From contig NZ_VUOB01000005.1 of NCBI RefSeq assembly GCF_008386585.1, forward strand, positions 40,232 through 104,231: DNA of 64,000 bases. The letters are read 5' to 3'. Positions 2,233-23,640 of the stretch are shown one piece after another. This DNA is from Solihabitans fulvus (lineage in GTDB: Bacteria > Actinomycetota > Actinomycetes > Mycobacteriales > Pseudonocardiaceae). A program made the position numbers and the translations under genes. Position 1 is the first letter of the stretch; each line of letters opens with the position of its first letter. The notes beneath the pieces are model-generated. The model was given only the letters and a program-made list of their open reading frames with translations, did not search any database and had not been told where the DNA came from.

Positions 2233-4749
2233 CTACCGCTCCGCCATCCCGGCCACGAGCGAACCCCGCGCGGCGCGGCGGGCCGGGATCAGGGCGGCGA
2301 GCGGCGCGGCCAGCACCGCAGCCCCCAGCAGCACGCCGAGCCGGCCCAACGGCAGCGTGAACAGCACGGGTTGGGCACCGGTCGAGGCCACCCGCGCGAG
2401 CAGCCAGGCCGAGCCGACGCCGAGCAGCAACCCGCAGGCCGCGCCGAACAGCGCCACGAACACCGACTCCACCGCGATGGCGCCGCCGAGCCCGCCCCTG
2501 GTCAGCCCGAGCGCGCGCAGCAGGGCCGACTCGCGGGTCCGCTCAAGCACCGACAGCGACAGCGTGTTGGCGATGCCGGCGAACGCGATCAGCACGGCAA
2601 GCGCGGCCAGCGCCCACATCAGGTTCAGCGTGCCGCGCAGCGGCGCCGACATCCGGTCCTTGAGGTCGGCGACGCTGTTGAGCGTGGCGAGCGGCGCGGC
2701 GGCCAGCGCCCGTTCCAGCGCGGGCCGGACCTGGTTCGGGTCGGCGCCCTCGGCGAGCCGAACCAGGATGCTGCCGTCGTAGCTGAATCCGGTGGGGTCC
2801 AGCGCCGGCAGCTGGCCGAGGTCGACCACGGCGAGCCGGAGGTCGACGCCGGGGGCCTGGACGCTGTCGTAGACCGCGACGGCCCGCAGCGGGACCGGGT
2901 TGCCCCGGGGGCCCGCCTGCACGGTGTCGCCGACGGCGACCCCCGTCTGCCTGGCGAGTTCCTGGCTCACGGCCAGTTCCCCTGGACCGAGCCGGTCGAG
3001 GTGGCCGGACAACACCACGGGCCGCAGCAGGCCGCCGAACGCGTCGCCGCGCACGGCGGTCATGCCCCAGCCCCCGAGCGCGCCGAGGTCCCCCGAGAAC
3101 GACACCCTCGGCGCGGCGGCCGCGACGCCGGGGACGGCGGCGAGGGTGGCCGGGAGGGTCGGCGGCAGCGGCTGGCTGTCGAGCAGCGAGGTGACGGTGA
3201 ACTGGGCCGCCAGCTGCTGGTCGAGACTGCGGCTCTGGCCTGCCTCGACGCCGGCCGCCATCGTGGTCACCAGCGACACGACGGCCAGCCCGATGGTGAG
3301 CGCGGCGGCGCTGGCCGCGGTGCGCTTCGGGTTCCGGCCGGCGTTGAGCGCGGCCAGCCTCGCGGACCGGCCGAGCATCGGGGCGCAGATCGCGCCGAGC
3401 GCCCGCATGACCGAGCCCACCAGCAGCGGCCCCGTGGCAAGCACCGCGCCGAGCAGCGCGACCATCGCCGCGACGGAGAGCGCGGCCCCCGCCTGCGCCT
3501 CGACGCGCAGCGCGAACACGGCCGCGCCGACACCCACCGCGAGCAGCGCGAGCCCGGCGATCGTCCTCGGCCGCCCGGCGCGGGCCGACCTGCCCTCCAG
3601 CGGCGTCCGCAGCGCGTCGACCGGGGCGACCCTGGTCGCCGCCCTGGCCGGCAGCGCCGCGGCCAGGGCCGTCACCAGCACCCCGATCGCCAAGGAAGCG
3701 ACGACCGTCCGCGCGGTGACGGGGAGGTACACCGTCGCGTGATGCCCGCCGAGCGCGCCGACGATCGACTGGAGGGCGGCGGCGACGCCGCGCCCGCCGC
3801 ACAGCCCGACCACGGACGCGACCGCGCCGACCGCGGCGGCTTCGGCGAGCACGGACGCGAACACCTGGCGTTTCCCCGCCCCGACGCAGCGCAGCAGCGC
3901 CAGCTCCCTGGCCCGCTGCGCGACGAGGATCGTGAACGAGTTGATGATCACCATCGCGGCCACGATCATCGCGAGCACGGCGAACGCGGTGAAGAAGCCG
4001 GTCAGGCCGCTGGAGTCGGGAGCCGTGTTGTCGAGGAGCCGCGCGGCGGCCTCCTGCCCGGTCACCACCTCGACGCCCCGGCCGCCGACGGCCCCGGTGA
4101 GGTCGGCGACGAGCCTCGGTCGGCCGACACCCGGTGTCGCGCGCACCACGATCTCGTCGAACCCCTGCCCCCTGGCCAGTTGGCGCAGGGCCTCGGGCAG
4201 CAGCACCAGCGCGGCCGCGCCGATGCCGGCGTCGGTCGGCCGGGTGACGGTGCCGACCAGCGTGAAGGTGTGCTGCCGGCCGTCCTGGTCGAGGACGGTC
4301 ACGAGTTGGCCAAGCGCGTGGCCCTCGGCGGTGTCCCGCTCGATCGCGATCTCGCCGGCAGTGCCGGGAAGTCGACCGTCGGCGAGGTCGAAGGGGCGCA
4401 GCCCCTGATCGGCCGGCAACGTGGTCGCGCTGGTTTCCCTCGGGCGGCCCGAGGCGTCACGCAGCAGCGCGCCGACGGTGCTGCGGCCCTCGGCCGCGGC
4501 GACGCCGTGCACCCCGCGGACCGTGGCCAGCAGTTCGTCGTCGAGCGCGGCCCCGCCCCGGCGGGTCTGGCTGATCGACGCATCCACCCCTCGGGTCTGG
4601 ACGGCGACGGCGTCGCGGAGTCCGGCGTGGACGGCGTCGGACAGCACGAGCGACCCGGCGACGAAGGCGACGCCGAGCGCGACGGCGACGGCCGAGAGCA
4701 GCAGGCGCAGGGGGCGGGCCCGCAGCCCGGCCAGGACGGTTCGCAGCAT
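2233..4749 (-). CDS. ABC transporter permease, FtsX/MacB-like with duplicated permease domains (838 aa)
   Basis: Real start is MLRTVLAGLRARPLRLLL at ATG 4749, overlapping the ATPase stop (GTGATG). The track ORF 2233..5112 is an upstream extension. Two FtsX-type 4-TM blocks with a large extracytoplasmic region. Confidence 0.85.
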   Translation of the reverse strand: MLRTVLAGLRARPLRLLLSAVAVALGVAFVAGSLVLSDAVHAGLRDAVAVQTRGVDASISQTRRGGAALDDELLATVRGVHGVAAAEGRSTVGALLRDASGRPRETSATTLPADQGLRPFDLADGRLPGTAGEIAIERDTAEGHALGQLVTVLDQDGRQHTFTLVGTVTRPTDAGIGAAALVLLPEALRQLARGQGFDEIVVRATPGVGRPRLVADLTGAVGGRGVEVVTGQEAAARLLDNTAPDSSGLTGFFTAFAVLAMIVAAMVIINSFTILVAQRARELALLRCVGAGKRQVFASVLAEAAAVGAVASVVGLCGGRGVAAALQSIVGALGGHHATVYLPVTARTVVASLAIGVLVTALAAALPARAATRVAPVDALRTPLEGRSARAGRPRTIAGLALLAVGVGAAVFALRVEAQAGAALSVAAMVALLGAVLATGPLLVGSVMRALGAICAPMLGRSARLAALNAGRNPKRTAASAAALTIGLAVVSLVTTMAAGVEAGQSRSLDQQLAAQFTVTSLLDSQPLPPTLPATLAAVPGVAAAAPRVSFSGDLGALGGWGMTAVRGDAFGGLLRPVVLSGHLDRLGPGELAVSQELARQTGVAVGDTVQAGPRGNPVPLRAVAVYDSVQAPGVDLRLAVVDLGQLPALDPTGFSYDGSILVRLAEGADPNQVRPALERALAAAPLATLNSVADLKDRMSAPLRGTLNLMWALAALAVLIAFAGIANTLSLSVLERTRESALLRALGLTRGGLGGAIAVESVFVALFGAACGLLLGVGSAWLLARVASTGAQPVLFTLPLGRLGVLLGAAVLAAPLAALIPARRAARGSLVAGMAER

Positions 4750-5495
4750 CACACCCCCAGGTTCGTCAGCGCCGCGAGCACGGTGTCGGCGGTGGGGCGG
4801 GTGAGGTGGGCGGCGACGCGGCCGTCGGCCAGCAACACGCCGTGGTCGGTGTAGGACGCGGCGACGGGGTCGTGGGTCACCATCACAACGGTCTGGTCGA
4901 GTTCGCGGACCGAGGTGCGCAGGAAGTCGAGCACCTCGGCGCCGGCGCGCGAGTCGAGGTTGCCGGTCGGCTCGTCGGCGAACACGACCTGCGGCCGGCC
5001 GACGAGTGCCCTGGCGCACGCCACCCGCTGCTGCTGGCCGCCCGAGAGCTCGCCCGGCGTGTGCCGCAGCCGGGTGCGCAGGCCGAGCGCGTCGACGACC
5101 GTGTCGAACCACGCCAGGTCGGGTCGGCGGCCGGCGAGCCGCAGGCCGAGCAGGATGTTGTCCTGCGCGGTCATGGTCGGCAACAGGTTGAACGACTGGA
5201 ACACGAACCCGACCCGGTCCCGCCGCAGCCTGGTCAGCGCCGCGTCGGACAGGCCGGTGAGGTCGGTCTGTCCGATCAGGACTTTCCCATCGTCCACAGT
5301 GTCCAGACCGGCCAGACAGTGCATGAGCGTGGACTTGCCAGAGCCGGACGGGCCCATGATCGCGGTGAAGCGGCGGGCGGCGAAGTCGACGGACACGTGG
5401 TCGAGCGCCCGCACCGCCGTGTCACCGTTTCCGTAGGTCTTCACGACGTCCGCCACGCCGGCCGCCGCCGGACCGTCCACTGTGTTCCCGAGCAT
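4749..5495 (-). CDS. ABC transporter ATP-binding protein (MacB/LolD-type ATPase)
   Basis: Walker A GPSGSGKST, signature LSGGQQQRVACARAL, Walker B VVFADEPTGNLD, H-loop VTHD. Confidence 0.9.
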   Translation of the reverse strand: MLGNTVDGPAAAGVADVVKTYGNGDTAVRALDHVSVDFAARRFTAIMGPSGSGKSTLMHCLAGLDTVDDGKVLIGQTDLTGLSDAALTRLRRDRVGFVFQSFNLLPTMTAQDNILLGLRLAGRRPDLAWFDTVVDALGLRTRLRHTPGELSGGQQQRVACARALVGRPQVVFADEPTGNLDSRAGAEVLDFLRTSVRELDQTVVMVTHDPVAASYTDHGVLLADGRVAAHLTRPTADTVLAALTNLGV

Positions 5496-5635: not shown

Positions 5636-6310
5636 ATGCGGGTGCTGGTGGTCGAGGACGAGAGGCGGTTGGCCGAGACGCTCCAATGGGGGCTGGAGGC
5701 CGACGGCTACGCCGTGGACCTCGCGCACGACGGCGTGGACGGGCTTGAACTCGCGCAGTCGCATCCCTACCAGGTGATCGTGCTGGACATCATGCTGCCA
5801 AGGCTCAACGGCTACCGCGTCTGCGCGGCGCTGCGGGAACGCGGGGTGACGACGCCGATCCTCATGCTCACCGCCAAGAACGGCGAGTACGACGAGGCCG
5901 AGGCGCTGGACACCGGCGCGGACGACTTCCTGAGCAAACCGTTCTCCTACGTGGTGCTCACGGCGCGGCTGCGCGCCCTCGTCCGCCGGGGCCGGACCGG
6001 CTCGGCCGCGCCGCTCGCCTTCGGCGACCTGGTGCTCGACCCGGCGCGGCGAACGTGCCGGCGCGCCGGTCAGCCGGTCACGCTGACCAGCAAGGAGTTC
6101 GCGGTGCTCGAGTGCCTGCTGCGGCAGCAGGGGCAGGTCGTCGCCAAGCGCGAGATCCTCGAGCAGGTGTGGGACCTGGCCTATCGGGGCGACCCGAACA
6201 TCGTCGAGGTCTACGTGAGCGCGTTGCGGCGGAAGCTGGACGCGCCGTTCGGCCGCCGCACCATCGCGACCGTGCGGGGCGTCGGCTACCGGCTGGTCGC
6301 GGATGAGTAG
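5636..6310 (+). CDS. OmpR/PhoB-family response regulator
   Basis: Receiver domain (VLVVEDE, D in VIVLDIMLP, LMLTAK) plus winged-helix output (LTSKEFAVLECLL, VRGVGYRL). Confidence 0.9.
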   Translation: MRVLVVEDERRLAETLQWGLEADGYAVDLAHDGVDGLELAQSHPYQVIVLDIMLPRLNGYRVCAALRERGVTTPILMLTAKNGEYDEAEALDTGADDFLSKPFSYVVLTARLRALVRRGRTGSAAPLAFGDLVLDPARRTCRRAGQPVTLTSKEFAVLECLLRQQGQVVAKREILEQVWDLAYRGDPNIVEVYVSALRRKLDAPFGRRTIATVRGVGYRLVADE

Positions 6311-7790
6311 CTGGTGGCCGGTGTCGGTCCGGCGGAGCACCGCGCTGTCGGCCGCGCTGCTCTGCGCGGTGGTGTTCACGCTGGGGTGGCTGGGGACGCG
6401 CCTGTTCGTGAGCGGGCAGCTGACCGACAACGCCGTGAACGCGACACGCACCGAGCTGGACCAGTTGACCGCGGCCTACCGCGCGGCGTCGCTCGGCGGT
6501 GGGCGGGCCGCGCTGGCCGCGGCGGTCCCGAGCGGCGACGCGATGTTCGCGGTCGTCGCGGACTCCGGGCAGGCGGTGTTGAGCAGCGCCAACCTGCGCC
6601 GCCTCGATCCGGCGTGGACTCCGCCACCGCCCGCCCCTGCCGGGGCGCGGCCCGACTGGACCGCCACCACGAGCGTCACGCTGCGGCCCGGCCAGCATCC
6701 GCAGTGGCGCGAGTACCGCGCCTACACCGTGGTGGGCCGCGTGCTCGACGACGTGCCCGCCGCCCTGGTGGAGCCGCTCGGCCGCGAGGGCCCGACCCTG
6801 GACCACGGGCTGGGCGGCGCGACCACGGCGACGCGCTACCGGCTCACGCTGTACCTGTTCGCGCAGCCGTGGAACACGGTGTCCGCGCTGCGCCTGTTCG
6901 ACGCCGCGTTGGCGTTCTTCGTGCCGTTGGCGGTACTGGTCACGGCCCTGGTCGCGTGGTTCGCGGCGGGGCGGGCGCTGCGGCCGGTCGAGGCGATCCG
7001 CCGGGAGCTGGCCGAGGTCAGCGGCAGCCAGCTCGACCGGCGCGTGCCGGTGCCCGACTCCCGCGACGAGATCGCCCGCCTGGCCCGCACCACGAACACG
7101 ACCCTCGACCGGCTGCAACACGCGCACGACCAGCAGGAGCGCTTCGTCGCCGACGCCAGCCACGAGCTGCGCAGCCCGCTCGCGAACCTGCGGGCCGGTC
7201 TCGAGGTCGCGCTCGCGCACCAGGACCGGGCGGACTGGCCCGCCGTCGCCCACCGGTCGCTGCTGGACGTCCAGCGCCTCCAGCGGATCACGGCGGATCT
7301 GCTCCAGCTCGCCGCCGACCCGACCGAGGTTCCCTCGGCGTCGGAGGTCGTCGACCTCGCGGACGTCGTCGAGGAACAGGTGGCCGAACGCTCGCTCGCG
7401 CCGAGCGGCCCGACCGTCAAGTCCATTGTGGACGGACCGGCGCCGGTGGTCGGCGAAGCAGTTCAGCTCGAACGCCTCCTGCGCAACCTGGTGGACAACG
7501 CGGTGCGGCACGGGCACTCCGTGGTCACCGTGCGCCTGACCGCAGCGCAGGACGAGGTCGTCCTCGAGGTGCTCGACGACGGTCCCGGCATCCCCGCCGC
7601 CGACCGCGACCGCGTCTTCGACCGCTTCGCCCGCCTCGACGACGCGCGCGCGAGGGACGCGGGCGGGTCCGGCCTCGGCCTCACCCTCGCCCGCGACATC
7701 GCCACCCGACACGGCGGATCCCTCCGGGTGGCGGACAGCGACTCGGGCGCCAGGCTCGTCGCGCGCCTGCCCCGCGCGCAGTCACGCTGA
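6303..7790 (+). CDS. Sensor histidine kinase (HAMP-HisKA-HATPase_c), partner of the OmpR-family regulator
   Basis: Overlaps the regulator stop by 8 nt. H-box ADASHELRSPL, N-box LLRNLVDNAVRHG, G-boxes DDGPGI and GGSGLGL; two TM segments flank a periplasmic loop. Confidence 0.85.
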   Translation: MSSWWPVSVRRSTALSAALLCAVVFTLGWLGTRLFVSGQLTDNAVNATRTELDQLTAAYRAASLGGGRAALAAAVPSGDAMFAVVADSGQAVLSSANLRRLDPAWTPPPPAPAGARPDWTATTSVTLRPGQHPQWREYRAYTVVGRVLDDVPAALVEPLGREGPTLDHGLGGATTATRYRLTLYLFAQPWNTVSALRLFDAALAFFVPLAVLVTALVAWFAAGRALRPVEAIRRELAEVSGSQLDRRVPVPDSRDEIARLARTTNTTLDRLQHAHDQQERFVADASHELRSPLANLRAGLEVALAHQDRADWPAVAHRSLLDVQRLQRITADLLQLAADPTEVPSASEVVDLADVVEEQVAERSLAPSGPTVKSIVDGPAPVVGEAVQLERLLRNLVDNAVRHGHSVVTVRLTAAQDEVVLEVLDDGPGIPAADRDRVFDRFARLDDARARDAGGSGLGLTLARDIATRHGGSLRVADSDSGARLVARLPRAQSR

Positions 7791-16345: not shown

Positions 16346-16657
16346 TTGGGCGTGCCGGGCTGCGGCGTGTCCGGCGCGGGTCAGGTGCTGGTCCGGGTCA
16401 AGGCCGCCGGCGTCAACCCGCTGGAGTCCGCGATCCGCGCAGGCGTCATGACCGAGGCGTACCCGGTGATCTTCCCCTCGGGGCAGGGCCGCGACCTCGC
16501 CGGGATTGTCGAGGTGCTGGCCGAACTCGCCGACCTGATCGACGCGGGACGCCTGGAGATCCCGATCGCGGCGACCTACCCGCTGGCCGAGGTGCAGGCC
16601 GCCTACAAGGAGCTCGAACAGCGCCACACCCGCGGCAAAATCGTCCTGCTGCCGTGA
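16346..16657 (+). pseudogene. Internally deleted remnant of an MDR-family NADPH:quinone oxidoreductase
   Basis: The 103-aa product joins an N-terminal fragment (GQVLVRVKAAGVNPLESAIRAG ... DLAGIVEV) directly to the C-terminal end (GRLEIPIAATYPLAEVQAAYKELEQRHTRGKIVLLP). About 230 aa of the normal roughly 320-aa enzyme is missing. Confidence 0.5.
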
Positions 16658-16670
16658 TCTCCACCGCCGG

Positions 16671-16706
16671 TCCTGTTGGGGCGGATGGTCAACCACCCCA
16701 ACAGGA
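16671..16706. terminator. Strong bidirectional hairpin TCCTGTTGGGG-N14-CCCCAACAGGA
   Basis: 11-bp perfect stem between the convergent QOR remnant (+) and the lanthipeptide precursor (-). Confidence 0.5.
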
Positions 16707-16717
16707 TTCGGCTCGGG

Positions 16718-16858
16718 TCAGCACTCCACGCGACCGCCGAGGCAGCCGACGTCGGTCGGCTGGAAGCTGTCGTGCCCGGTGTCGCAGCACATCGTCGGCT
16801 CCAGCACGCGCTCGTCGCGCTCGGGCAGTTCCTGAAGTTCGAGCACCTGGTCCTCCAT
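16718..16858 (-). CDS. Lanthipeptide precursor peptide (LanA), 46 aa: MEDQVLELQELPERDERVLEPTMCCDTGHDSFQPTDVGCLGGRVEC
   Basis: Not in the ORF track because it is under 60 aa. ATG 16858 with RBS GGGAGGTG 7 nt upstream; starts 14 nt after the stop of the synthetase on the same strand. GC3 is about 91%. Leader carries an LxLQ (VLELQEL) motif; C-terminal region has 4 Cys and 4 Ser/Thr. Confidence 0.65.
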   Translation of the reverse strand: MEDQVLELQELPERDERVLEPTMCCDTGHDSFQPTDVGCLGGRVEC

Positions 16859-16872
16859 AGCGTTTCACCTCC

Positions 16873-19509
16873 CTACGCAGCGAGTGGGAAACGGCGGTCG
16901 ACCAGCCACGCGCGGTCGCCGCCGTGCCGCAGGCGCAGCAGGAAGTCCAACACCCCGGCGAACCCCACCTGGTAGCTCGGGCAGACCTCCCGCAGCGTGT
17001 CGTCGGGCACCAGCAACCGGCCGCGCACCCGCACCGCGCGGGTGAACAGGCAGGTCGCCAGCTCGGCGGCCTGCCGCCGATAACCGTCCTCGCCGGTCGC
17101 CTGCGCCAGGTCGAGCAGCAACTCGGCGTTGCCGGCCACGCCGTGGCAGATCCCCGGGCCGAGCCGCCACCGGTCCAGGTACGCCGCGCGGGCGGCCCGC
17201 CGCGCGTGGTCGAGGAACGTCGCGTCGCCGGTCTCCCGCCACAGCCGCACCAGGAACGTGCCGACCCCCGACGCGCCGTTGCACCAGAAGTCCAGCCCGG
17301 GACGCTCGGCCCGCCCCGGACCCTTGGGCCACCACGCGGCGTCGCCGCGCGTCCGCGCCACCGCGCACAGCGCGTGCCCGCCGCCGACCGCGACCTCGAC
17401 GAGGTCCGGCCGGCCGAGATCACGGCCCGCGGCCAGCAGGAACGCGCCGACCCCCGCGACGCCGTGCGCGAACCCGTAGCTGCCCAGCCCGGCGAGGTCG
17501 TCGCGGAATCCGCCGTCCGCCAACCAGTCCACCCCGGACCGGGCAAGGCGCACCTGCCGCAGCACCGTGTCCGCCGCGGCCGCCGCGCGCGCCGCGAACC
17601 GCTCGTCGCCGGTCGCGTGCCAGAACCGCAGCTGCGTCAGGCCGGCGCCCGCAACCCCGTGGCAGACGTCGAGATTGGGCCACGCCACGGGAATCTCCAG
17701 CGCCGACGCCGCCGCCCAGTCGGCCGTCGCGGAGTCGCCGAGCGCCACCGCCGCGTCGTGCAGCGCCCACACGGCGCCCGACCGCCCGAAGTGCAGGCCC
17801 GGCAACACCCTGCGCTCCTGCGGCAGCCGCCACCGCATCCACCGCACGGCCGACCGCAGCGCGGGCCGCGCTGACTCCAGGCCGTGCCCGACCGCGCGCC
17901 GCAGCAGCGCCACGACGCCGGCCGCGCCGGTCTGCACATTGCACGGGTCGCCGTGCGGCAGCGAGCTCGGCTGGGGCCACAGGTACTCGCCGGACGGGTC
18001 CATGGTGTCGGCCAGGTGCGCCAACCCGTCCCGCACCAACAGGTCGACGTCGACGTCCGGCAGCTCAGGCCCAGCCGACACCGGCGCCACCCGTGGCCCG
18101 CCAGTCCGCAGGAAACGCCTGGTGTGCGCCAGGGTCCACCGGTCCGGCTCGTCGGCGGTCAGGCCGAGCACAAGCGGCAACAGCGCGGCCAGCGCCGCGC
18201 TGCCCGGCGCGGCGGCGTGCGCCAGCGCCGCGAGGCGCTCGCCGATCCACCGGCCCGGCACCGTGTCCGGCACCAGCACGGGGTGAATGCCGGTGGTGGC
18301 GTGCAGGAGGGTCGCGCCGAGGCTGAAGCAGTCGGCCGACGGCTCCGGCGCGTGATCCGCGCCGGAGCGCAGGTACTCCGGGGCCACGAACCCGGCCGTG
18401 CCGACCACGGCGGTCCGCGTGCCGGGGCGCGTGGCGGCCTCGAGGTCGATCAGCAGGGGAGTGCCGTCGGACCGCATGATCACGTTGCTCGGCTTGAGGT
18501 CTCGCAGCACCAGCCCCACCGCGTGCACCCGGTCCAGCACCGAGCTCAGCGCCCCGGCGAGTTGCCAGGCGCTCTCCGGCGACGGCTGCCCGTCATGTTC
18601 GCGGTGCCAGTCCTGGAGGTTCGTGCCGTCGACGAACTCCTCGACCAGGAACAGGTGGCCGCCAGCCGAGAACAGGTCGAGCCGTTGCGGCGTGATCACG
18701 TGCGGCGCCAACAGGTCCAGCATGTCGGCCTCGTGCCGCAGCCAGTCCCGCGCGTCGCGCCCGTCGAGGTCGGCGCCGACGTGCGGGCGGGCCTCCTTGA
18801 TCAGCACGTCGTGGCCGGTGCGTTCGTCCCTGGCGCGGTACACGCCGCCCCGGTTGCTGTGCCGGATCGCCTCGCTCACCACGTAGCGGTCGGCCAGCCG
18901 CACCGGGTCGCCGCGCCGCCGTGTCGGCGTGTCCGTGGCGGGGAACGGGTCGACGGCCCAGGGCGGGGGAGCGAACCAGGGGAGCCGGTCGTCGCGGACC
19001 GAGGCGCCGTCGGGGTCGCGCAGCCGCATCTCGTAGCTGCCCTCGTCGGTCAGCTCCAGCGGCGCGTGGAAGCAGCCGTAGCGGTAGTGCACGAGACTGC
19101 CCCGGTGGTAGCGGCGGTCGGACAGGATCGCCGGCCCCGGCAGCCCGAGAGTGGCCTCGTGCAGGTCCTTGGCGAGCGCGCGCAGCCGGTCGTCGTCGGC
19201 GGGGTAGGCGGTGAGGAACTTCCCCGACCGCGCGCGATCCATCCGCGCCGACACCAGCCTGGCGGTCACCGCCGGCGTGCTGGCGAACTTGAACGCGCAG
19301 TCGTGCCGCAGCAGCACCCTGGCCGCGCGCTCCAGCACGGACGGCGCGGATCCGGGTGTCGCGGACAGGTGCAGCTTCCAGCCCTGCCGGCGCGGCTCGT
19401 GGTCGGGCGGGGTCACCAGGTACCAGGGTTCGCGCAGGTCGACCCGCCAGCCCGCGGCGGCATCCGGCTCGTCCAGGACGCGCTCGACGATGGGCAGGTA
19501 GTTCGGCAT
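16873..19509 (-). CDS. Trifunctional lanthipeptide synthetase (N-terminal lyase, Ser/Thr kinase, C-terminal LanC-like cyclase); LanL (class IV)-like
   Basis: Kinase motifs (GGVYRARD, VLIKEAR, VLRDLKPSNV, IDLEAA, GTAGFVAPE). LanC-like motifs with the Zn ligands conserved (VCHGVAGAG, FWCNGASGVG, ICHGVAGNAELLL). N-terminal lyase-like region (GWKLHLS, GKFLTAYP). Confidence 0.85.
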   Translation of the reverse strand: MPNYLPIVERVLDEPDAAAGWRVDLREPWYLVTPPDHEPRRQGWKLHLSATPGSAPSVLERAARVLLRHDCAFKFASTPAVTARLVSARMDRARSGKFLTAYPADDDRLRALAKDLHEATLGLPGPAILSDRRYHRGSLVHYRYGCFHAPLELTDEGSYEMRLRDPDGASVRDDRLPWFAPPPWAVDPFPATDTPTRRRGDPVRLADRYVVSEAIRHSNRGGVYRARDERTGHDVLIKEARPHVGADLDGRDARDWLRHEADMLDLLAPHVITPQRLDLFSAGGHLFLVEEFVDGTNLQDWHREHDGQPSPESAWQLAGALSSVLDRVHAVGLVLRDLKPSNVIMRSDGTPLLIDLEAATRPGTRTAVVGTAGFVAPEYLRSGADHAPEPSADCFSLGATLLHATTGIHPVLVPDTVPGRWIGERLAALAHAAAPGSAALAALLPLVLGLTADEPDRWTLAHTRRFLRTGGPRVAPVSAGPELPDVDVDLLVRDGLAHLADTMDPSGEYLWPQPSSLPHGDPCNVQTGAAGVVALLRRAVGHGLESARPALRSAVRWMRWRLPQERRVLPGLHFGRSGAVWALHDAAVALGDSATADWAAASALEIPVAWPNLDVCHGVAGAGLTQLRFWHATGDERFAARAAAAADTVLRQVRLARSGVDWLADGGFRDDLAGLGSYGFAHGVAGVGAFLLAAGRDLGRPDLVEVAVGGGHALCAVARTRGDAAWWPKGPGRAERPGLDFWCNGASGVGTFLVRLWRETGDATFLDHARRAARAAYLDRWRLGPGICHGVAGNAELLLDLAQATGEDGYRRQAAELATCLFTRAVRVRGRLLVPDDTLREVCPSYQVGFAGVLDFLLRLRHGGDRAWLVDRRFPLAA

Positions 19510-20737: not shown

Positions 20738-21670
20738 TCAGCGCAGCGCGGACTCCAGGACGGTCAGCGTGCCCGCGTCCGCGTCCAGCTCCGCCGGCAC
20801 CCCCAACGGCACGGTCAGCTGCCCAGCGCAGTGCCCGAATCCCAGGTCCCACACCATCGGCACATCCAACCCGGCCAACAGGTCCAGCAACACCGCGACC
20901 ACCTCCTCGGGCCGTCCGCACGAGGTGAACGACCCGAACGCGATGCCGGCCACCCCGTCGAACCACCCCGCGCGCAGCAGCTGCGTCACGATCCGGTCCA
21001 GCCGGTAGGGATCCTCGGTCACGTCCTCCAACAACACGATCGCGCCGTCCGGCGGCGCCGGCGCGTCCGGCGCACCCAGCGCGGACACCACCAGACTCGC
21101 GTTGCCGCCGACCGTGACACCGCGCGCGAGCCCGGGAACCAGCGTCCTCGCCCCGGCCGCGCCGAGCACCCGCACCGACTCCGGCTCGAACAGCGCGCGC
21201 CGAAAGTGCTGCTGCGCAGGCACATCGTCCACGAACCCCGGCGTGGCGACCATCGGCGCGAACACCGTCGCCACGCCGACCTGCGCGCCGAACCAGTCGT
21301 GCAACGCCGTCACATCGCTCGACCCGGCGAACACCGTGGGCCGCGCCCGCGCCAACGCCGGCCAGTCCACCAGATCAAGGATCCGCAGGCAGCCGTAGCC
21401 ACCCCGCGCGCACAGCACCGCGGCCACCTCGGGATCGCAGTACGCCCGCACCAGATCCCCGGCCCGGTCCGCATCGGCGCCCGCCAAGTACGGCAGCGTC
21501 GGATGCGCGTCGAGCACGTGCGGGGCGACCTCCACCAGCAGCCCCCACGACCGCAGCACCGCCACCCCGGCGGCCAACTGCGCCTCCGGCACCGGCCCGG
21601 CAGGCGCGACCACCACCACGCGGTCGCCCCGCCGCAACCTGGCGGGGCGACGCCGCGACGGCGAACTCAC
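20738..21670 (-). CDS. LD-carboxypeptidase (peptidase S66, LdcA/MccF family)
   Basis: S66 signatures (DRVVVVAPAG, CARGGYGCLRIL, AGSSDVTALH). GTG start overlaps the upstream S9 peptidase stop (GTGA). Confidence 0.8.
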   Translation of the reverse strand: MSSPSRRRPARLRRGDRVVVVAPAGPVPEAQLAAGVAVLRSWGLLVEVAPHVLDAHPTLPYLAGADADRAGDLVRAYCDPEVAAVLCARGGYGCLRILDLVDWPALARARPTVFAGSSDVTALHDWFGAQVGVATVFAPMVATPGFVDDVPAQQHFRRALFEPESVRVLGAAGARTLVPGLARGVTVGGNASLVVSALGAPDAPAPPDGAIVLLEDVTEDPYRLDRIVTQLLRAGWFDGVAGIAFGSFTSCGRPEEVVAVLLDLLAGLDVPMVWDLGFGHCAGQLTVPLGVPAELDADAGTLTVLESALR

Positions 21671-23640
21671 TCGCGCAGCTCCAGCACGGGAACCCCCGGC
21701 GCCTCGAAGCCCAACACCTGACCGTAGAAGGACAACTCGGCTTCCAGCGCGGCCTTGATCGTCTCCGCCCTGCGGAACCCGTGCTGCTCACCCTCGAACG
21801 TCAGGTACGCGTGCTTGACCCCAGAACCGTCCAGGGCCGCCACGAACCGGTCGGCCTGGTCGGGCGGGCAGATCTCGTCCTCGAGGCCCTGCAACAACAA
21901 CACCGGCCCGACCAACTTGTCGACCTTGCTGCTCGGCGACCGCTCCTTGTACCGGTCGGCCGCCGCAGGCCACGGCCCGACGAGGCCCTCCACGTACCGC
22001 GACTCGAAGTCGTGCGTCTCGCCGCCGTCACCGGTCCAGCCGGCCAGGTCCAGGATTGGGTACATCACGTTGCCGCACCGGTAGGTCGACACCGACGTCA
22101 TCGACGCCGCGGCGGTCCAACCGCCCGCGCTGCCGCCCCGGATCGCCAGCCGCTGGCCGTCCGCGACGCCCTCGGCCGCGAGCGCCTCGGCCACCGCGGC
22201 GCAGTCCCGGACGTCGACGACGCCCCACTGCTCGCGAAGCCGCTCCCGGAACTCCCTGCCGTAGCCGGTGGAGCCGCCGTAGTTCACCGACACCACACCG
22301 ATGCCCCTGCTGGTGAAGAACGCCAGCTCCACATCGAGCACCGGCACCGACCGACCGGTCGGGCCGCCGTGCACGTGCACCACGTACGGCGGCAGTTCGC
22401 CATCGGGCCCAGCGAAGTCGGGACTGGTCGGGGGGTAGACATAGGCGGGCACCGTCTGCCCGTCGGGGCCGGTGAACACCCGCTCCGTGGGCACCGGCAG
22501 GTAGCTGGCGTCGGGCAGCTCGTCCGGCTGCCCCGTGACGGCCGTCAGCTCGCCGTTGGACAGGTCCAGCCGCACCACTGCGGCCTCCGAGGTCGCCCCG
22601 GCCGCGCCGTTGACGACCACGCCGTCGGCCGCGACCAGATTGCCGAACCACACCGGCAGGTCGGTGTCCACGTCGGTCACCGTGCCGCTGCGCTCGTCCA
22701 GCACGGCCAGCCTCGTGTCGGCGACCACTGCGAACCGGCCGTCGCCAAGCGCGGCGAACCACCGGTTACCCAGCCGCCACATCGGGCCGCCGATCTCCCG
22801 CTCGCACGGCGCGAGGTTGCGCACCGAACCGTCCAGGCCGACGCGGTGCAGGTTCCACCAGCCGTCCGGGTCGGTCAACGCCAACAGGGTCTCGGCGGTC
22901 TCCCACTCGAACTGGCAGACCGCCTCGGTCGGACCGCCAGCCAGCACCCGGTGCTCGCCGAGCGACCCGTCCTCGGCCACGGCCGCGACACACAGCTCGG
23001 TGCCGTCCCACGGCATCGCCGGGTGGTCCCAGCCCAGCCAGGCGACGTGCCGGCCGTCGGGGCTGGCCTTCGGTCCGGTCATGAAGTGGTGGCTCGCGCC
23101 GAGCACCCGCACCTCGGCCTCGTCGGTGGCCGCCGCACCCGACACCGGCAGCGCGACCAGGTCGCGGCGGATGTCCGTGCGGGCCTCGCCCGTCGCGGCC
23201 TCGCGCACGCACCACACCTCGGTGCCGTCCGGGCTCGCGGTCAGGTCCGCGTAGCGGAATCCCTGCCGGCGCAGCGGGTCCGGACTGATCGGCTGCGGTG
23301 TCGCCGCCGCGTCGTCCGCGTCGACCAGGTACACGCGCTGGTCGTCCCAGTTGGTGAACGCCAACCGGTCACCGTCGGGAGTGCCGATCACCACCCACGG
23401 CCGGCCGCCGTACTCGTGCACGCGGTTGCGGACGTTCCACGGCGCGGACAGCACCTGCTCGGGCTGCCCGTCGGGCCCCTCCCGCAGCAGGGCGGTGCGG
23501 CCGCCCTCGGCGGGACGGCTCTCCGCCCACCACACCCGTCCGTCGTGCAGGTCGACCCACTGGAGGCCGCCGCCGGCGGCAGCCGCCTCGGCCGAGCCGA
23601 TGGGGGAGGTCCAGGTTCCATAAGGCGCGATCTTCACCAC
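21667..23640 (-). CDS. S9-family serine peptidase (prolyl oligopeptidase / acylaminoacyl-peptidase type)
   Basis: 657-aa product: N-terminal beta-propeller-like region plus C-terminal alpha/beta-hydrolase with nucleophile motif IRGGSAGGW and a downstream Asp/His pair. Confidence 0.85.
   Translation of the reverse strand: MVKIAPYGTWTSPIGSAEAAAAGGGLQWVDLHDGRVWWAESRPAEGGRTALLREGPDGQPEQVLSAPWNVRNRVHEYGGRPWVVIGTPDGDRLAFTNWDDQRVYLVDADDAAATPQPISPDPLRRQGFRYADLTASPDGTEVWCVREAATGEARTDIRRDLVALPVSGAAATDEAEVRVLGASHHFMTGPKASPDGRHVAWLGWDHPAMPWDGTELCVAAVAEDGSLGEHRVLAGGPTEAVCQFEWETAETLLALTDPDGWWNLHRVGLDGSVRNLAPCEREIGGPMWRLGNRWFAALGDGRFAVVADTRLAVLDERSGTVTDVDTDLPVWFGNLVAADGVVVNGAAGATSEAAVVRLDLSNGELTAVTGQPDELPDASYLPVPTERVFTGPDGQTVPAYVYPPTSPDFAGPDGELPPYVVHVHGGPTGRSVPVLDVELAFFTSRGIGVVSVNYGGSTGYGREFRERLREQWGVVDVRDCAAVAEALAAEGVADGQRLAIRGGSAGGWTAAASMTSVSTYRCGNVMYPILDLAGWTGDGGETHDFESRYVEGLVGPWPAAADRYKERSPSSKVDKLVGPVLLLQGLEDEICPPDQADRFVAALDGSGVKHAYLTFEGEQHGFRRAETIKAALEAELSFYGQVLGFEAPGVPVLELRE

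Follow-up and report, generated by a model that had tools for sequence, protein, structure and literature searches.

The locus studied here raises the question whether a lanthipeptide system can pair the leader of one class with the enzyme of another. In a 64,000-nucleotide stretch of Solihabitans fulvus DNA (contig NZ_VUOB01000005.1, positions 40,232 to 104,231; the window), a gene for a lanthionine synthetase, lanL, is followed by a small precursor gene, lanA, the leader of which carries the LxLQ string commonly discussed for class III lanthipeptides. A sequence-only reading had seen a class IV-like cyclase beside a class III-like leader, and had concluded that the class was ambiguous, the system being either class IV with a class III-like leader or built on a transitional enzyme. 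The comparisons of sequences and the structure model reported below indicate that lanL-lanA is very probably a bona fide, ordinary two-gene class IV lanthipeptide operon of S. fulvus. The ambiguity arose because a motif that both classes use was read as a mark of class III. What is new is modest, and consists only of a so far unnamed family of class IV precursors in which an N-terminal Cys-Cys pair is invariant, the enzyme itself being a typical LanL.

Architecture and class of the synthetase

The lanL gene (16873..19509, minus strand, stop codon included) starts with ATG and encodes 878 amino acids (aa), a product 100% identical to a Solihabitans fulvus database protein; database homologues at 44-63% identity carry the NCBI name LanL. 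Among the NCBIfam models, the class IV model NF038150 (LanL) is matched over its entire length (profile positions 1-851 of 851) and scores 991 bits, the cutoff being 650, whereas the class III model NF038151 (LanKC) gives 471 bits, which is under its cutoff of 575. The protein comprises an N-terminal phosphoserine/phosphothreonine lyase domain (residues 15-198; 18916..19467, minus strand; Pfam RamC_N, 4.7e-60), a Ser/Thr kinase domain including the N-lobe leader-recognition region (residues 219-411; 18277..18855, minus strand; Pfam Pkinase, 5.8e-20) and a LanC-like cyclase domain (residues 523-868; 16906..17943, minus strand; Pfam LANC_like, 1.4e-30). The lyase motif GWKLH is present, with K45 and H47 invariant, and the kinase carries its full set of catalytic residues, K238, E260, D337, N342, D355 and E357, all invariant among 16 LanLs, the D-F-E element being taken as the equivalent of the kinase metal site (PMC9828337).

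If the enzyme were transitional, or a hybrid of classes III and IV, class III-type leader recognition, and perhaps a class III-type lyase-kinase part, would be fused to a zinc cyclase, and the product might include labionin. Such an origin would fit the 471 bits that the whole enzyme reaches on the class III model, the strict LxLQ found in every member of the lanA family, and the weak matches of the family leaders, which score 8-14 bits on mostly class III precursor models. However, when the lyase, kinase and cyclase parts were scored separately on the class IV and class III models as a check for a chimera, all three favoured class IV (257 versus 188 bits for the lyase, 299 versus 169 for the kinase and 411 versus 96 for the cyclase). 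As a check for a transitional status, ten other LanLs, from close relatives through to metagenomic ones of 35% identity, were also scored and reached 753-1069 bits for class IV and 393-526 bits for class III; the pair of scores of lanL is typical of them, and a class III score of this size is thus normal for a LanL. The AlphaFold model of lanL (predicted local distance difference test, pLDDT, 89.2; predicted template modelling score, pTM, 0.88; full-length alignment as input) likewise has the class IV enzyme CuvL as its closest Foldseek match in the Protein Data Bank (8CAV/8CAR; template modelling score, TM, 0.78-0.83; identity 28-30%), a match that spans the full length of lanL, while the class III enzymes ThurKC, SalKC and PneKC are farther away (TM 0.59-0.72; identity 14-19%). 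As for the precursors, the class III matches all remain far under their cutoffs (22-30 bits), the leader also bears the class IV motif LxxLPE, and the labionin motif SxxSx2-5C is found in no core of the family. A hybrid enzyme is accordingly very improbable, and neither a transitional enzyme nor an ambiguity of class is borne out. Assignment of the enzyme to class IV, which had also been proposed from the sequence, is on the other hand upheld by the 991 bits on NF038150, the domain-wise scores, the CuvL fold and the alignment of the zinc ligands described next.

Zinc site and catalytic acid of the cyclase domain

In order to place the putative zinc ligands, alignments were made with phmmer and with a cyclase-domain profile built from 19 sequences against LanCL1, LanCL2, GCR2 and LicM2. 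The profile matches CuvL, GCR2, LanCL1, LanCL2 and LicM2, and reaches NisC at an E-value of 3e-8. The first candidate ligand, C743 in FWCNG (codon at 17281..17283, minus strand), aligns with C276 in the WCHG of LanCL1 and with the corresponding WCHG of LanCL2 and LicM2, and is kept in 79 of 79 aligned homologues. The second and third, C788 and H789 in ICHG (codons at 17143..17148, minus strand), align with C322 and H323 of LanCL1 (the 3E6U chain numbering minus a 12-residue tag); the C788 column holds Cys in 76 of 76 aligned homologues and the H789 column His in 75 of 76, and a Cys is found in the latter column in one metagenomic LanL (L078). Since the three residues also fall on the ligand positions of LanCL2, LicM2 and GCR2, the Cys/Cys/His set is complete, and C743, C788 and H789 are, as judged by alignment, in positions equivalent to LanC-type zinc ligands. 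Non-equivalence of these positions had been named as the result that would overturn the sequence-only reading; the alignment found equivalence instead. A cyclase domain devoid of zinc ligands, as expected for class III, is not what lanL encodes, all three ligands being present; in the class III enzyme ThurKC the ligand positions are occupied by Ser, Phe and Asp, while NisC has the zinc ligands C284, C330 and H331 and the acid pair D141 and H212 (PMC10604976).

The motif list from the first inspection needs revision in this respect. All three strings that it had given as zinc-ligand motifs do exist, VCHGVAGAG at residues 615-623, FWCNGASGVG at 741-750 and ICHGVAGNAELL at 787-798, and the latter two hold the ligands. 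VCHGVAGAG contributes none, as it falls in the GxxG repeat ahead of them, from which D614 comes. This segment (LDVCHGVAGAG, 17641..17670, minus strand) combines D614, the putative Asp partner in acid catalysis, with VCHGVAGAG and aligns with the Asp-bearing GxxG repeat of LicM2 (PDFIAGDSG), D614 falling on the conserved Asp of PDF and being kept in 82 of 84 homologues. The catalytic acid His, H682 in FAHGVAGVG (codon at 17464..17466, minus strand), had been left out of the list and aligns with H219 of LanCL1. D614 probably corresponds to D141 of NisC and, by its 68-residue spacing to H682, would correspond to D642 of SgbL. The residues validated in SgbL are D642, H710, C769, C814 and H815 (PMC9292228), and their spacing is that of D614, H682, C743, C788 and H789, with 68 residues from Asp to His and 45 from Cys to Cys in both enzymes, so that the catalytic His/Asp pair is accounted for as well. 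The ligand and acid columns do not vary among 16 database LanLs, nor among the complete loci in a set of 85. For annotation this settles the locus as a lanthipeptide operon of plain class IV type, in which VCHG is not to be entered as a zinc-ligand motif.

The His of the VCHG string, H617 (17659-17661), is itself conserved in 82 of 84 LanL homologues (DVCHG), and is neither a canonical LanC ligand nor the acid. In the HMMER alignments CuvL (8CAR/8CAV) shows FCQG and QCCG where FWCNG and ICHG are found here; the last two ligand positions thus hold Cys-Cys in CuvL and Cys-His in lanL.

The precursor gene and its leader motif

The precursor was located by a six-frame search, which returned one small open reading frame (ORF) with VLELQ. 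The (I/V)LELQ-bearing precursor noted from the sequence thus exists, although it lies beyond the 16873-19509 interval that had been given: lanA occupies 16718..16858 on the minus strand (stop codon included) and encodes a peptide of 46 aa, MEDQVLELQELPERDERVLEPTMCCDTGHDSFQPTDVGCLGGRVEC (beginning MEDQVLELQELPERDE). The order is lanL followed by lanA, both on the minus strand, with the ATG of lanA 14 nucleotides (nt) past the lanL stop. A ribosome-binding site, GGAGGTG, read from the sequence at 16866..16872 (minus strand), abuts the lanL stop and stands 7 nt before this ATG. Directly past the lanA stop lies a stem-loop (CCTGTTGGGG...CCCCAACAGG; 16672..16705, minus strand), a probable terminator or stabiliser, which was detected by reading the letters and then folding them. 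It is a perfect 10-bp GC-rich inverted repeat that forms 14 pairs when folded, and lacks a T-run; its minimum free energy is -35.9 kcal/mol (z -5.9), and none of 200 shuffles was equally stable. The short intergenic distance, the ribosome-binding site and the stem-loop together make the two genes look like one operon. The GC content of the window is 72-77%, and a scan of this 74% GC region for consensus promoters and terminators gave no match, the stem-loop being missed as well.

The recognition motif of the leader, V5-LELQELPE-13 (16820..16846, minus strand), contains three overlapping signatures: the hydrophobic θxxθxxθ pattern (V5, L8, L11), LxLQ and LxxLPE. The last of these, read as L8-Q-E-L11-P12-E13, is the Lx2LPE hallmark of class IV leaders, and had gone unnoticed in the first inspection. 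A hydrophobic helix of the form (M/L)xx(L/V)xxL or θxxθxxθ is conserved across class III and class IV leaders, and the kinase binds it, in either class, through a shared leader-recognition subdomain, as seen in the CuvL-CuvA and ThurKC-ThurA structures (PMC9828337; PMC11330476; PMC8341899). The Walker 2020 supplement (legend of Figure S2) assigns LxLQ to class III and Lx2LPE to class IV; the LELQELPE of lanA contains both, in overlap.

How often such motifs occur in class IV was evaluated in 35 class IV precursors outside the lanA family, all beside LanLs that bear the zinc ligands, 34 of them metagenomic peptides and the last VenA; loci in general were sampled from metagenome contigs and by exact-protein look-ups. 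The VenA sequence used agrees with the published residue numbering (PMC2843593) and, as a control, scores 96.5 bits on the VenA model. The screen for precursors required a hydrophobic i/i+3/i+6 pattern and a tail rich in Cys and Ser/Thr, with no Gln or Pro demanded, and because these features were pre-selected, the motif frequencies are conditional on the filter: h-x-x-L-Q is found in 23 of the 35 and LxxLP in 19. There is moreover a curated NCBIfam model, NF038157, for the 'ALQxL family class IV lanthipeptide', which metagenomic precursors beside zinc-type LanLs match above its cutoff with 21-26 bits. An LxLQ-type leader therefore does not discriminate class III from class IV, and the claim that LELQ marks a class III leader fails, the helix being common to both classes, h-x-x-L-Q frequent in class IV precursors and LxxLPE overlapping the very same residues. 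Since the motif is the recognition helix of both classes, leader and enzyme are not in conflict. In many of the metagenomic class IV loci (L006, L010, L034, L040, L047, L065, L068 and L072), two or three precursors are encoded in tandem, alike in their leader but not in their core.

A conserved and unnamed precursor family

With its 46 codons, and with no Pfam or NCBIfam match above threshold, lanA could be a chance ORF, in which case LanL would be an orphan or act on a substrate encoded elsewhere. The strong ribosome-binding site and the terminal hairpin speak against this, and conservation effectively refutes it. The peptide is identical to a Solihabitans 'hypothetical protein' (P0128), and an equivalent follows LanL in nine other loci, from Embleya (4), Streptomyces klenkii, S. 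olivoreticuli, Kutzneria, Nocardia and Kitasatospora, V5, L6, L8, Q9, L11, P12, P21, C24, C25 and S31 being invariant in an alignment of eight family sequences. A profile search extended the family to 31 clusters (P0121-P0151; E-values down to 2e-20), all annotated as 'hypothetical protein' and spanning eight genera, Streptomyces, Kitasatospora, Embleya, Nocardia, Kutzneria, Kibdelosporangium, Nonomuraea and Solihabitans. The likelihood of a chance ORF is consequently negligible.

The family pattern is VLELQELPETDE...LEP-x-MCC(D)T, in which the core opens with an invariant Met-Cys-Cys. The predicted core of lanA, T22-C46 (16721..16795, minus strand), contains four Ser/Thr and four Cys residues, with a putative leader/core boundary after P21. 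Cores of different sub-types occur, with ...DTGHHSF...C, with ...DTDHTSGQCTDPPRC or, in Nocardia, with ...RSHYRSF and only two Cys, and one UniRef entry of the family is mislabelled 'FxLD family'. The labionin motif SxxSx2-5C of class III cores is absent from all nine family cores inspected. At E-values up to 10 the lanA peptide did not match the curated class IV precursor families VenA (NF038147) and ALQxL (NF038157), no family leader reached the cutoffs of the class III models NF038154, NF038159 and NF038160, and a full-text literature search for the peptide strings returned nothing relevant. Going by these profile comparisons, the 31 clusters are an unnamed class IV precursor family that is covered by no curated model. 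The family is widespread in actinomycetes, and is marked by the MCC start of its core and by a second, stand-alone LanC in several relatives.

The invariant vicinal Cys-Cys is N-terminal to the conserved T27 and S31, which suggests rings closed towards the C-terminus. A more far-reaching idea, which we regard as rather doubtful, is that the family may be an uncharacterised class IV scaffold. On this idea, the conserved rings would need closure with 'reverse' polarity, possibly making a Cys/His/Asp metal-binding peptide, and the leader, dual-competent or ancestral, could serve LanKC and LanL enzymes alike.

Observations at odds with an ordinary class IV operon

Some observations weigh against regarding lanL-lanA as an ordinary class IV operon. 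No transporter, immunity gene or dedicated protease was seen adjoining the pair in the surrounding part of the window, and the cluster may therefore be silent or lean on genes elsewhere. The only NCBIfam match of lanA is to a class III model, NF038160, at 10.1 bits against a cutoff of 27 (E 0.74). Strict LxLQ occurs in nine of nine lanA-family loci versus three of the 35 other class IV precursors, and this is the part of the original leader observation that survives: the string is universal in the family and rare in class IV outside it. Finally, in several relatives an additional stand-alone LanC is encoded, and cyclisation may thus not be identical across the family. In four related loci this LanC-like gene lies directly past lanA, so that the order is lanL-lanA-lanC and the class IV system has two cyclases (L002, 6919-8019; L005, 6852-8126; L086, 8811-9797; L089, 8903-10123), while it is absent at this place from the loci L004, L088 and L090 and from the window, where a search for a second LanC-like gene found none.

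One explanation for the enrichment in strict LxLQ is an exchange of leaders, by which the precursor family of a plain LanL would have acquired a class III-derived leader, or retained an ancestral leader with both motifs, recognised by LanKC as well as LanL. The sub-threshold NCBIfam matches point in the same direction, as they favour class III models (a, b and c) and noursin NorA over ALQxL, which is matched by one of eight family leaders only (12.6 bits against a cutoff of 19), and lyase and kinase domains of both classes are known to bind each other in vitro (PMC9828337). However, short leaders carry little phylogenetic signal, all of the matches in question are under threshold, LQxLP(E) is common in class IV with VenA carrying LHALPETD at the same place, and a single A-to-E change is enough to turn the common class IV ALQ into ELQ. 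Leader exchange is therefore considered improbable, if somewhat less so than a hybrid enzyme, and an ordinary class IV operon remains the preferred reading. The lanA family offers a natural substrate for asking how far class III and class IV enzymes share leader recognition, and a reasonable target for heterologous expression.

Proposed biosynthesis and comparison with known systems

Building on what is directly observed, namely the gene structure, the identity of the domains, the class assignment, catalytic and ligand residues that stand in equivalent positions and a conserved precursor family, a course of biosynthesis may be proposed by analogy with SgbL, VenL and CuvL. The 46-aa precursor would be recruited through its amphipathic leader helix V5-x-x-L8-x-x-L11, followed by P12-E13, which presumably docks on the kinase domain, at the leader-recognition subdomain of its N-lobe. 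The kinase would then phosphorylate Ser/Thr residues of the core, the likely candidates being T22, T27, S31 and T35, and the N-terminal lyase would eliminate the phosphate to leave dehydroalanine and dehydrobutyrine (Dha/Dhb). The LanC-type cyclase would add C24, C25, C39 and C46 to the dehydro residues to form (methyl)lanthionine rings of a putative topology; C743, C788 and H789 would coordinate the zinc ion that it uses, and H682/D614 would serve as the acid. The leader would thereafter be removed, at a predicted cleavage site, by a protease encoded outside the operon.

The synthetases of venezuelin, globisporin and curvocidin (VenL, SgbL and CuvL) share with lanL the lyase-kinase-LanC architecture and an adjoining precursor gene, and SgbL in addition the equally spaced Asp/His acid pair and zinc-ligand positions. 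VenA resembles lanA in combining θxxθxxθ and LxxLPE in its leader. In contrast, lanL is only 28-30% identical to CuvL, which in the alignments shows Cys-Cys where lanL and LanCL1 have Cys-His, the lanA core is unrelated to those of venezuelin and globisporin, and no transporter genes of the venT/venH type adjoin lanL-lanA. Precursors of the ALQxL family are likewise encoded beside a zinc-type LanL and have an N-terminal h-x-A-L-Q-x-L leader, often followed by P and acidic residues; lanA differs from them by an E for the A (LELQ) and by its core, and does not reach their model. With the class III LanKC systems (leaders of LabA2, AmfS, RamS and CurA; ILELQ/LxLQ) the locus has in common the literal LxLQ string, leader recognition by the kinase N-lobe and homologous lyase and kinase domains. 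It differs from them in its zinc ligands, in a LanKC score under the cutoff, in a core without the labionin motif and in the sub-cutoff scores on class III precursor models.

Genes surrounding the operon

An S9 prolyl oligopeptidase (21667-23640, minus strand) and an S66 LD-carboxypeptidase (20738-21670, minus strand) are encoded 1.2-4 kb upstream of lanL, and in the Kutzneria locus an S15 X-Pro dipeptidyl peptidase is divergent from lanL (L086, 3998-5830). Two residues ahead of the Cys-Cys pair, the lanA leader carries an invariant Pro. A Pro-specific leader peptidase near lanL is possible; a dedicated role of the S9 enzyme stays speculative, because the neighbourhood is not conserved among the relatives.

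About 12 kb from lanL, a MacB/FtsX-type ABC permease is found beside a response-regulator/histidine-kinase pair (2233-5112, minus strand, and 5636-7790, plus strand). Modules of this kind often sense or export peptide antibiotics; any connection between this one and the lanthipeptide genes would be conjectural. Directly past the lanA hairpin, a 103-aa ORF on the plus strand (16346-16657) joins fragments of ADH_N and ADH_zinc_N_2, and appears to be what an internal deletion has left of a quinone-oxidoreductase-type dehydrogenase.

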